Shown: in pieces, positions 5,439 through 6,982 of the stretch
Layout of the letters: each line of letters starts with the position of its first letter
How positions within the stretch are numbered: position 1 is the first letter of the stretch
DNA from: a virus
Taxonomy: Duplodnaviria; Heunggongvirae; Uroviricota; Caudoviricetes
Direction: 5' to 3' (one strand)
IMG/VR virus record: IMGVR_UViG_3300045988_009865
Span: 1 to 64,000 of that record
DNA length: 64,000 nucleotides
The notes under the pieces: model-generated
Seen by the model: the letters and a program-made list of their open reading frames with translations, nothing else
Told to the model about the DNA's origin: nothing
Database searches by the model: none
Position numbers and translations under genes: made by a program

Positions 5439-5453
5439 ATTTCAATAAAGTTG

Positions 5454-5482
5454 TTGACATTGAGATGCGACTACTTTATAGT
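5454..5482 (+). promoter_or_regulatory. sigma70-like promoter (TTGACA, 17-nt spacer, TATAGT)
   Basis: -35 5454..5459, -10 5477..5482; directly downstream of tRNA-Ile; drives region holding the tag-like mini-ORF and tRNA-like element. Confidence 0.55.
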
Positions 5483-5531
5483 AACCTTAGTTTTCGTTGC
5501 GTAGCGTCTATTTTGCAAATTTAAAATAAAT

Positions 5532-5567
5532 GCAAACGACAATGTTTTTCTGGCAGTAGCTTGATAG
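5532..5567 (+). other. tmRNA-tag-like mini reading frame GCA AAC GAC AAT GTT TTT CTG GCA GTA GCT TGA TAG (ANDNVFLAVA, double stop)
   Basis: starts with GCA and encodes an AND-initial, Ala-rich decapeptide with tandem stops, resembling tmRNA resume/tag frames; no ATG or RBS in frame. Confidence 0.3.
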
Positions 5568-5715
5568 GCTAAACACCAGTGAGGTCTTCCAATCCCTCAT
5601 CAAAGAATTTGGCGTACTAGCCCACGGTATGATTAATAAGGTGGGCAACATTCTAAAGGGTATCCCTTATGGGGCTTGGCTTAAATGCAATGAGTACCCT
5701 TTAAAATGTTAATTA

Positions 5716-5797
5716 CGGGGCGTATCTCAGCGGTCTTCTAAACCGCCGTTAACCGAGTAAGTGGAGTATGCGGGTTCGAGTCCTGCCGCCTCGACCA
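5716..5797 (+). ncRNA. aberrant tRNA-like structure: Ala-type acceptor (G3.U70, A73, CCA), Arg-type loop (CTTCTAA), no canonical D-arm, 23-nt extra segment
   Basis: acceptor CGGGGCG/CGCCTCG 7/7 with G3.U70; perfect hairpin GCGGT-CTTCTAA-ACCGC; T-arm GCGGG-TTCGAGT-CCTGC; only 7 nt between acceptor and anticodon-like stem. Confidence 0.5.
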
Positions 5798-5813
5798 ATT
5801 TTGGATGAAATCA

Positions 5814-6160
5814 TGAAAACTTGTATTAGGTGCAAACTTAGCAAGGATGAAAGTGATTTCTACATGAAAGATGGTAGGAGAACTCATTCATACTGTAAAA
5901 AGTGTGTTAATGAGCAAACCATAGAAAGACAAAGAGCACTTAAACTTTCAGCTATTGAGTACAAAGGTGGGATTTGTCATGATTGTGGTAAAAGGTATCA
6001 TCCAGCAGTGTATGACTTCCATCATTTGAATCCTTCAGAGAAAGATTTTAACATTGGTCATAGAAAAAGTCTTAAGTTCTCTCAGGAGCTAAAAGATGAA
6101 CTTGACAAATGTGTTTTGCTATGTTCAAATTGCCATAGGGTAAGACATGCAAAGTATTAG
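5814..6160 (+). CDS. HNH homing endonuclease
   Basis: CxxC...CxxC zinc motifs and YDFHHLNPSEKDFNIG...LLCSNCHR HNH core; ATG at 5814 preferred over track start 5768, which lies inside the tRNA-like element. Confidence 0.7.
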
Positions 6161-6297: not shown

Positions 6298-6380
6298 GTG
6301 GGACGATGTTAAGACTCTAAGGCATGAGCAACGGCCTCCAAAACCGTTTCAAAGGGGTTCAACTCCTCCGTCCCATGCCA
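6298..6380 (+). tRNA. tRNA-Trp (anticodon CCA)-like with about 7 extra nt in the D region
   Basis: acceptor GTGGGAC/GTCCCAT (G1.U72), loop CTCCAAA, T-arm AGGGGTTCAACTCCTCC, CCA; D region 26 nt rather than about 19. Confidence 0.45.
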
Positions 6381-6906: not shown

Positions 6907-6982
6907 GGGGATGTAGTTTACATGGTTAAAACATAAGTTTTGCAAACTTAAGTACAGGGTTCAATTCCCTGCTTCTCCACCA
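6907..6982 (+). tRNA. tRNA-Ala (anticodon TGC)
   Basis: acceptor GGGGATG with G3.U70, anticodon arm TAAGT-TTTGCAA-ACTTA, T-arm CAGGGTTCAATTCCCTG, A73, CCA. Confidence 0.75.

Follow-up and report, generated by a model that had tools for sequence, protein, structure and literature searches.

A phage-borne family of tRNA genes with a rewired layout and its candidate tRNA-Arg(UCU) member in a Felixounavirus tRNA cluster

Introduction

Cytosolic transfer RNAs (tRNAs) are known to differ in the sizes of their arms, and a 2024 paper takes this variation to be the entire known structural diversity of these molecules (PMC11551756). Here we describe a candidate tRNA gene in which the parts of the core stand in a different order. 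It lies at positions 5716-5797 (plus strand) of a 64,000-nucleotide (nt) stretch of Caudoviricetes DNA (IMG/VR record IMGVR_UViG_3300045988_009865, positions 1 to 64,000), the whole of which is called the window hereafter, and the D hairpin expected between position 9 and the anticodon arm is absent. With a probability of roughly 0.8, we consider the element to be a functional phage tRNA-Arg(UCU) with a rewired core that decodes AGA, and it probably decodes AGG as well. The family to which it belongs is large, mainly phage-borne and divided into an Arg class and an Ile class.

The closest described RNA is the canonical phage tRNA-Arg(UCU), for example that of Shigella phage Sf16, which is like the element in genomic slot, CUUCUAA anticodon loop, UUCGAGU T loop, acceptor stem of 7 base pairs (bp) and encoded CCA. 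An AAnUGGA D-loop sequence with A20 is also common to the element and canonical phage tRNA-Arg(UCU), and the presumed job, decoding of the over-used AGA codon, is alike. The difference is in the core. The Sf16 tRNA has a D hairpin (GUCU-AAAGGAU-AGGC) before the anticodon arm and a variable loop of 4-5 nt, whereas the element has no D hairpin, its anticodon arm is nested in a short helix, here called helix s, and a D-loop-like motif follows the arm.

Mitochondrial tRNA-Ser(AGY) and the synthetic mini HisT (PMC11551756; PMC9427863) resemble the element in the absence of a D hairpin, the three-helix junction and the short connector to the anticodon arm. However, these RNAs are simply without the D arm and its T-loop contact and are Y-shaped, whereas in the present family a D-loop-like GG(A) and a D-stem-like helix are retained in a changed order. 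Its members are not shortened (73-84 nt) and are found in phages of bacteria and not in organelles. The translation apparatus of Escherichia coli can accept a D-arm-less tRNA (PMC11551756; PMC9427863), and laboratory evolution was needed for E. coli to use one (PMC11551756).

The tRNA-like domain of transfer-messenger RNA (tmRNA) is alike in its G3.U70 acceptor stem, ACCA end, T arm, absence of a D hairpin and long helix that replaces the D/anticodon region. However, tmRNA has a tag reading frame, pseudoknots and a universal G3.U70 and has no anticodon loop, whereas in the element the Arg anticodon arm is standard and there is no tag, and only 4 of the 104 family members listed have G3.U70. 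The combination of G2-C71, G3.U70, G4-C69 and A73 is the same as in tRNA-Ala and in engineered G3.U70 transplants, but the element differs from tRNA-Ala in its UCU anticodon, an A20-like base and a C1-G72 pair, and the window has its own tRNA-Ala(UGC) at 6907-6982. Allo-tRNAs and tRNAs with 8/4 or 9/3 acceptor/T stems (PMC5389517; PMC7609411) are likewise natural non-standard tRNAs obtained by genome or metagenome mining, some of them in phages; they keep four arms and alter only the arm lengths, whereas the family has a 7/5 branch with a changed D/anticodon topology. One review (PMC7609411) makes no mention of phages, viruses or such a layout. In the open-access literature we found no description of this rewired tRNA family or its layout, although absence there is not proof of novelty.

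Architecture of the element

The element is 79 nt long plus CCA, and its parts are as follows (all on the plus strand, in RNA letters except where DNA is stated).

5716-5722, plus strand: 5' strand of the acceptor stem, CGGGGCG, forming 7 bp with 5787-5793, G3.U70 included
5723-5725, plus strand: U8, A9 and U10, the connector from the acceptor stem to helix s
5726-5728, plus strand: 5' strand of helix s, CUC, pairing with GAG at 5755-5757
5729, plus strand: lone unpaired A at the junction of helix s and the anticodon stem, like position 26 (a direct reading of this sequence; the corresponding alignment column 15 is variable in the family)
5730-5746, plus strand: anticodon arm GCGGU-CUUCUAA-ACCGC, a perfect 5-bp stem with a 7-nt loop, anticodon UCU at 5737-5739
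5747-5754, plus strand: 8-nt bulge or linker CGUUAACC from the anticodon stem to the 3' strand of helix s (2-10 nt in the family)
5755-5757, plus strand: 3' strand of helix s, GAG
5758-5765, plus strand: D-loop-like motif UAAGUGGA, by analogy A14 A15 n U17 G18 G19 A20
5766-5769, plus strand: connector GUAU into the T stem, with AU at 5768-5769
5770-5786, plus strand: T arm GCGGG-UUCGAGU-CCUGC (T helix 99.4% paired across the family)
5787-5797, plus strand: 3' strand of the acceptor stem, CGCCUCG (5787-5793), A73 (5794) and encoded CCA (5795-5797)

The hallmarks of a tRNA are thus present: a 7-bp acceptor stem (C1-G72, G2-C71, G3.U70, G4-C69, G5-C68, C6-G67 and G7-C66), a 5-bp anticodon stem with a 7-nt loop that has U33 and R37, and a 5-bp T stem with a UUCRA loop. 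The junction joins three helices instead of four, and the anticodon arm is nested inside helix s, the chain running from U8 A9 through the 5' strand of helix s, the anticodon arm, the 3' strand of helix s, the D-loop-like motif and GUAU into the T arm.

A preliminary description, made from the sequence of the stretch, had reported the perfect acceptor stem with G3.U70, A73 and CCA, the hairpin GCGGT-CTTCTAA-ACCGC (DNA) with a loop of Arg(UCU) type, the spacing of only 7 nt between the two (TATCTCA in DNA, UAUCUCA in RNA, 5723-5729), and 23 extra nt (CGTTAACCGAGTAAGTGGAGTAT, as RNA CGUUAACCGAGUAAGUGGAGUAU, 5747-5769) ahead of a canonical T arm. All of these agree with the sequence and its coordinates, and the tRNA-Ala(TGC) that it placed at 6907-6982 is called by ARAGORN. 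Its hand fold was correct in having three helices and no D hairpin, but the pairing between linker and insert and the D-loop-like motif had been overlooked. It had also considered that a covariance model might fold the element as an ordinary tRNA-Arg with a standard D-arm. With the Rfam tRNA model (RF00005), the element scored 31.7 bits, above the gathering score of 29 (E = 0.011 over the whole window), in an alignment where 4 nt replace 15 D-arm positions of the model and a 20-nt insertion precedes the T arm. The covariance model therefore finds no standard D-arm.

A family with one common layout

IMG/VR was scanned with the Arg(UCU) loop and the T loop separated by a free gap, and this listed about 100 ordinary tRNA-Arg genes together with divergent contigs that have the same long gap as the element. 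A second scan of IMG/VR used GTAANTGGA and the T loop and left the anticodon unconstrained. The family set consists of at least 104 unique sequences from viral contigs, among the matches listed, and counts out of 104 refer to these; UAAnUGGA and the T-loop sequence were search criteria.

The members have one common layout. In the 5' half, the 5' strand of a 7-bp acceptor stem is followed by U8 A9, a strand of 3-4 nt, 0-1 nt, the anticodon arm and 2-10 nt; in the 3' half come the complementary strand, which closes with G, then UAAnUGGA, 3-10 nt of which the last two are AU, and the T arm. The element conforms to this, with CUC and GAG enclosing the anticodon arm, the motif at 5758-5765, AU at 5768-5769 and a UCU anticodon. 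Two features that the search pattern did not impose are nearly or fully constant, namely U8 A9 in all 104 members and AU directly before the T stem in 102 of them, and CCA is encoded in 69. A descriptor scan that did not use the motif gave 65 unique hits and regained a UAAnUGGA-type motif in 54, and reversed-sequence controls gave no hits.

BLAST found members in cultured phages as well. These include phi92 and other Justusliebigvirus, the Klebsiella phages Sugarland and KPP-1, the jumbo phages PHA46 and BF17, and phages of Rhizobium, Mesorhizobium, Xanthomonas, Stenotrophomonas, Vibrio, Serratia, Streptomyces and Microbacterium. The annotation under these matches was almost always none, and occasionally "tRNA-OTHER". 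Among 185,579 species genomes, the pattern occurred at only 61 places, of which about 31 have the layout, most of them in metagenome-assembled genomes. At the cellular loci examined (Bradyrhizobium, Acidobacteriaceae KBS 96 and two metagenome-assembled genomes), the gene was always inside a dense tRNA array. This suggests that the dense cellular arrays are mobile tRNA-array units common to bacteria and phages.

Two minor observations concern these arrays. The cellular carriers (loci L416, L362, L367, L357 and L408, from Acidobacteriaceae KBS 96, Bradyrhizobium spp. and metagenome-assembled genomes) have 18-25 tRNAs per 8 kilobases. In three of them, ARAGORN called a tRNA-Ile(tat) gene of an unusual length of 92-95 nt (L416 5520-5612, L357 4827-4918 and L408 3951-4045); these long genes adjoin the non-canonical tRNA-Arg in the bacterial arrays and may represent another non-standard structure.

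Covariation of helix s

To assess the core, 103 unique members were aligned by a fixed rule that was anchored on the anticodon hairpin and UAA and was not fitted to helix s. In the register of helix s, the 3 nt before the last linker nt pair with the 3 nt before UAA, that is, nt 11-13 pair with 3 nt downstream of the anticodon arm. In this alignment the four helices were jointly 96.0% paired, compared with 59.8% after column shuffling (none of 500 shuffles reached the observed value) and 37-46% in slid registers. For helix s alone, pairing was 86.4%, compared with 56.5% after shuffling (again none of 500) and 23-36% in slid registers. The middle pair of helix s (columns 13-44) was GC in 49 members, CG in 27, UA in 20, AU in 6 and other in 1, so that all four Watson-Crick types occur, and the pair beside UAA (columns 12-45) was CG in 101 and UA in 2. 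The acceptor helix was 98.9% paired, with changes on both sides at all 7 pairs.

Compensatory change was also found within the genus. The element is 100% identical in many Felixounaviruses and the acceptor stem is invariant among the Felixounavirus copies, and the anticodon stem has undergone two compensatory double changes, from GCGGT/ACCGC to GCTGT/ACAGC to TCTGT/ACAGA.

Three other structural proposals were rejected. A second long-range helix, here helix X, between nt 8-10/11 and the nt just past UGGA is not a general feature, because 42% or 61% of cells pair, depending on the register; covariation is confined to the 25 members whose linker has 8 nt (pair 10-55, GC 12 and AU 11; pair 11-54, CG 15, UA 6, UG 2 and AU 1). 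In the sub-family of the window, U8 A9 U10 could pair with GUA, and this pairing gives no covariation signal because UAU and GUA are invariant there. A hairpin inside the insert predicted by RNAfold (CCG-AGUAAG-UGG) competes with helix s and has no covariation support. The 23-nt insert as an intron was likewise discarded, as it is below self-splicing size and carries one strand of a covarying helix.

Amino acid identity

Among 111 parsed sequences with GGA in the motif, the anticodon was TCT in 62, ACG in 30, TCG in 8, CCT in 6 and CCG in 1, that is, an Arg anticodon in 107; the remainder consisted of one GAT and three ordinary class-II tRNAs or junk. In the listed set, 103 of the 104 unique members have an Arg anticodon together with the A20-like base. 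When the scan was repeated with a non-A base after GG, the same layout was found with GGU, and the anticodons were then TAT (13), GAT (5) and CAT (4), with A73 in nearly all. This sister class, with the Ile anticodons UAU, GAU and CAU, occurs at L279, L294, L255, L323, L328 and other IMG/VR loci, and one UGU (Thr) case was seen among the GGU loci, at L276.

Arg identity in bacteria is determined by A20, C35, U/G36 and A/G/U73, and Ile identity by A73, U20, A35, U36, A37, A38 and other positions (PMC9976931). Both identity rules are thus followed in the family, where the base at the "20" position goes with the anticodon class. This is the best available sequence evidence and suggests that arginyl-tRNA synthetase (ArgRS) and isoleucyl-tRNA synthetase (IleRS) recognise the RNAs of the family. 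The element itself has C35, U36 and A73, and an A after GG at the A20-like place, to which the role of A20 is assigned by analogy; the motif matches the AAyUGGA D-loop of a canonical phage tRNA-Arg. In the family, (U)AAnUGGA would correspond to the 5' half of a tRNA-Arg D loop, with A14 R15 n U17 G18 G19 A20.

Decoding demand and genomic slot

AGA is rare in E. coli. In the window, it is the commonest Arg codon, accounting for 246 of 616 Arg codons (39.9%) or 16.6 per 1000 codons, and AGG accounts for 8.8%. A similar over-use of AGA relative to the host is reported for Sf14, a Moogle-like relative of Sf16 (PMC12482277). A canonical tRNA-Arg(ACG) is present in the window, and ARAGORN found no other UCU tRNA.

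Across the family, 75 genes lie in stretches with 8 or more other tRNAs. An ordinary tRNA of the same anticodon accompanied only 3 of them, compared with 14.2% of the ordinary tRNAs in the same arrays, and 10 of 41 large arrays yielded no further Arg tRNA. At every cellular locus examined, the Arg anticodon of the family gene had no other carrier in the array. Family genes thus fill missing Arg anticodons in tRNA arrays.

The window is a Felixounavirus tRNA cluster, with 99% identity to E. coli phage vB_EcoM_D4 and 97% to Salmonella phage Felix O1, and the region matches 264 phage records, nearly all from Felixounavirus and relatives. The element sits between tRNA-Ile(GAT) and a small gene labelled HNH endonuclease in GenBank records. 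These flanks align in Sf16 (Mooglevirus, same subfamily), where the slot is taken by a canonical 76-nt tRNA-Arg(TCT) whose anticodon loop and T loop are identical to those of the element and whose stems are entirely different. As all stem sequences differ, the relation is one of replacement and not that of a mutated copy. In the RefSeq record of Felix O1 the site is unannotated; one other record has a "tRNA" without identity and another a "tRNA-OTHER". The genome paper of Felix O1 lists 22 tRNAs obtained by tRNAscan-SE and remarks that a tRNA for the over-represented AGA codon was expected yet missing (PMC3185647).

Detection by tRNA models

In its tRNA and tmRNA modes, ARAGORN called 25 tRNAs across the window, none of them at 5716-5797, and no tmRNA. 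The program recognised only 3 of 105 isolated family members, and just one of these was typed as Arg. A family-specific pattern matched once in the window and not in 100 shuffles. A covariance model was built from the family alignment and gave 59.7 bits for the element, which was in the training set, and 56-69 bits for members, compared with 29 bits for the best ordinary tRNA and 28.8 bits for the canonical tRNA-Arg(UCU) of Sf16. Five bacterial-array copies outside the training set also scored 56-69 bits.

As a separate observation, Escherichia phage KookSpook (T5-like) has a 72-nt gene annotated as "tRNA-OTHER" (L234 1470-1541). Its acceptor stem and T arm are good and it contains the segment GUAACUGGUGGAAGAU; a D hairpin is absent, as is a clean anticodon arm. 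The gene scored 33 bits with the family model. Its 3' part is common to about 80 T5-like records.

A putative working model of the rewired tRNA

How such an RNA could act as a tRNA can be proposed by analogy. Helix s would stack on the anticodon stem as a D stem does, and the bulged GG of the D-loop-like motif would dock on the T loop to form the elbow, with the final AU as a possible partner of A15. The role of A20, which is the main determinant for ArgRS in E. coli, would fall to the A after GG, and with C35 and U36 this base would allow charging by the host ArgRS. A normal acceptor/T arm and a normal anticodon arm would be presented to RNase P, EF-Tu and the ribosome. The product would supply the most-used Arg codon of the phage, a codon that is rare in the host. 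In terms of canonical numbering, the segments appear to be ordered as a 22-25-like strand, the anticodon arm, a 10-13-like strand and the D loop, an order that would result from tandem duplication of the D-plus-anticodon region and two subsequent deletions.

Several points weigh against reading the element as a working rewired tRNA-Arg. We found no expression data for Felixounavirus tRNAs (tRNA-seq or Northern) in the open-access literature, and the three-dimensional contacts proposed by analogy (G18/G19 with the T loop, A20 with ArgRS) are ones that we infer. The invariance of UAAnUGGA and of the T loop is partly circular, because both were search criteria. Helix s has only 3 bp, and its third pair (columns 14-43) is formed in 60% of members; RNAalifold applied to the family alignment returned just the three classical helices and no helix s, and the nearest-neighbour model assigns it +1.2 kcal/mol. 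Given the RNAalifold result and this value, the case for helix s comes from covariation and not from predicted energy, and the helix probably needs tertiary support, like many D stems. The single-sequence fold of the element is no more stable than shuffles (z = 0.04). Finally, the element carries G2-C71, G3.U70, G4-C69 and A73, which are determinants for alanyl-tRNA synthetase (AlaRS) in E. coli, and G3.U70 is kept in Felixounavirus, Sugarland, PHA46, BF17 and KPP-1 while the pairs 1:72 and 2:71 change compensatorily (homologues L420-L423).

The wider proposal, to which we give slightly better than even odds, is that the family is an undescribed structural class of elongator tRNA, used for Arg and Ile codons and widespread across phages of many bacterial phyla, the classical phages Felix O1 and phi92 among them, and some bacterial arrays, in which AGA of the enterobacterial phages is possibly Arg/Ala-ambiguous and the core was possibly selected for escape from tRNA-targeting enzymes. 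The class would have been overlooked because tRNA finders miss its members or cannot type them. Should the members of the family be working tRNAs, a tRNA with different wiring is already in natural use on the standard E. coli/Salmonella apparatus, that is, RNase P, the modification enzymes, ArgRS, IleRS, EF-Tu and the ribosome. It would then provide a natural test case for the parts of the tRNA core that are truly required and a scaffold for orthogonal-tRNA engineering. It would also close the annotation gap of the AGA tRNA of Felix O1, and many phage tRNA counts and codon-adaptation analyses would be affected.

Alternative explanations

The preliminary description had emphasised alanine identity elements and proposed a mischarging tRNA. 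An alanine-accepting or dual-identity tRNA, charged by AlaRS through G3.U70 and A73 so that AGA is read wholly or partly as Ala, is in our estimation unlikely. G3.U70 is the main AlaRS determinant and is functional when transplanted into other tRNAs (PMC9976931), and the whole set of determinants named above is literally present in the element. The pair is scarce in ordinary non-Ala tRNAs of the same loci (17 of 1692, 1.0%) and nearly constant in tRNA-Ala (53 of 55), and its retention in five enterobacterial-phage lineages despite the changes at 1:72 and 2:71 also favours this explanation. However, G3.U70 does not define the identity of the family. The 3:70 pair is CG in 45, GC in 32, AU in 13, UA in 10 and GU in 4 of the 104 listed members, and the discriminator is G in 44, U in 33 and A in 27. 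In phi92, the nearest E. coli phage copy outside the enterobacterial-phage clade, the corresponding bases are G3-C70 and G73, and G73 is also found in Sugarland, BF17 and KPP-1.

What the family conserves are the Arg determinants, that is, the A20-like A after GG, C35 and U/G36. The element has C1-G72, unlike the G1-C72 of E. coli tRNA-Ala. The position matters, as a G1.U72 pair blocks E. coli AlaRS (PMC9976931). The five lineages with G3.U70 are about 90% identical, and the shared G.U may therefore be due to common descent. The heavy use of AGA also argues against alanine as the intended reading, because frequent insertion of Ala at the commonest Arg codon would be expected to harm most phage proteins. 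With the Arg determinants conserved, G3.U70 not family-wide and AGA heavily used, the proposal of a mischarging tRNA was not supported.

A main role other than decoding, for example as bait (decoy or sponge) against a host defence nuclease that cleaves tRNAs or as a tRNA shaped mainly for escape from one, is still less probable. Phage tRNAs have been proposed, and sometimes shown, to counter tRNA-targeting defences, for example colicin D, which acts on tRNA-Arg (PMC10264068; PMC11555353; PMC13056530), and a particular threat could be the reason why the odd core is limited to few identities (Arg and Ile). On the other hand, nothing in the present data links the family to any defence system, its genes fill missing anticodons and fit codon demand as decoders would, and the anticodon loop of the element is the ordinary CUUCUAA and not one mutated for escape. 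One RNA could serve both escape and decoding. The rewired fold of a decoding tRNA-Arg may help it to escape tRNA-cleaving enzymes, which fits current thinking on phage tRNAs (PMC10264068; PMC11555353).

We regard a decaying pseudogene, derived from a tRNA-Arg by loss of the D-arm and gain of an insertion, as very improbable. Such a gene would be expected from the silence of ARAGORN, the Rfam score barely over the threshold and a fold no better than shuffles, but it is contradicted by the retention of the same layout in over 100 divergent sequences (phages of Proteobacteria, Actinobacteria and others), by the covariation of four helices and the compensatory changes within the genus, and by the 100% identity in many Felixounaviruses of what is the sole UCU decoder of the cluster.

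A tmRNA-like domain or a piece of a two-piece tmRNA across 5440-5800, which the preliminary description had also suggested and for which G3.U70, A73, CCA, the absence of a D hairpin, a structured upstream leader of 230 nt and weak Rfam matches at 5440-5584, upstream of the element (11.9 bits for tmRNA, RF00023, and 15.4 bits for permuted tmRNA, RF04321), could be cited, is effectively ruled out by the ARAGORN and Rfam results, as both scores are far under the gathering score of 47, the ARAGORN tmRNA search was empty, both acceptor strands lie within 79 nt around an ordinary anticodon arm, the same leader precedes the canonical tRNA-Arg in Sf16, and the family is largely without G3.U70. The interest of the element is as a member of a widespread and overlooked group of rewired tRNAs, and not as a mischarging tRNA or a tmRNA mimic.

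Neighbouring features

Upstream of the element there is one further feature of note.

5454-5482, plus strand: promoter-like site TTGACA-17 nt-TATAGT, matching 11 of 12 hexamer positions (a consensus match only), about 235 nt upstream of the element

From its sequence, this site is a possible transcription start for the tRNA. Between the promoter-like site and the tRNA lies a structured non-coding leader of about 230 nt (5485-5715), and its end, especially 5641-5714, forms a long near-perfect hairpin, AACAUUCUAAAGGGUAUCCC...GAGUACCCUUUAAAAUGUU. The stretch of the leader directly 5' of the element also aligns in Sf16. Because it stands there before the canonical tRNA-Arg, the leader is independent of the odd tRNA fold.

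Downstream, an open reading frame (ORF) of 115 amino acids (5813-6160) begins 16 nt past the CCA of the tRNA and contains CxxC...HHLNP...CSNCHRVRH. Its product had no Pfam match at 1e-3, though related GenBank records say HNH endonuclease, and several records annotate a longer version of the ORF that overlaps the tRNA. In Klebsiella phage Sugarland, an HNH gene likewise directly follows the family tRNA copy. The idea that the tRNA and the downstream HNH gene travel as one cassette was rejected, as the HNH-annotated proteins of Felixounavirus and Sugarland are unrelated by BLASTP.

A second odd tRNA-like sequence is found at 6300-6374 of the window. It has GGGACG...CGUCCC ends and a T-arm-like GGGGUUCAACUCCUC, and its anticodon-type hairpin presents CCA either in a 9-nt loop or in a 7-nt loop closed by a C.A mismatch. 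ARAGORN made no call here, and Rfam gave only 23 bits, with the tRNA-Sec model. The tRNA set of the window is otherwise without Trp, and at the homologous place in phage VpaE1_ev78 (L003 2335-2405) ARAGORN calls a 71-nt tRNA-Trp(cca).

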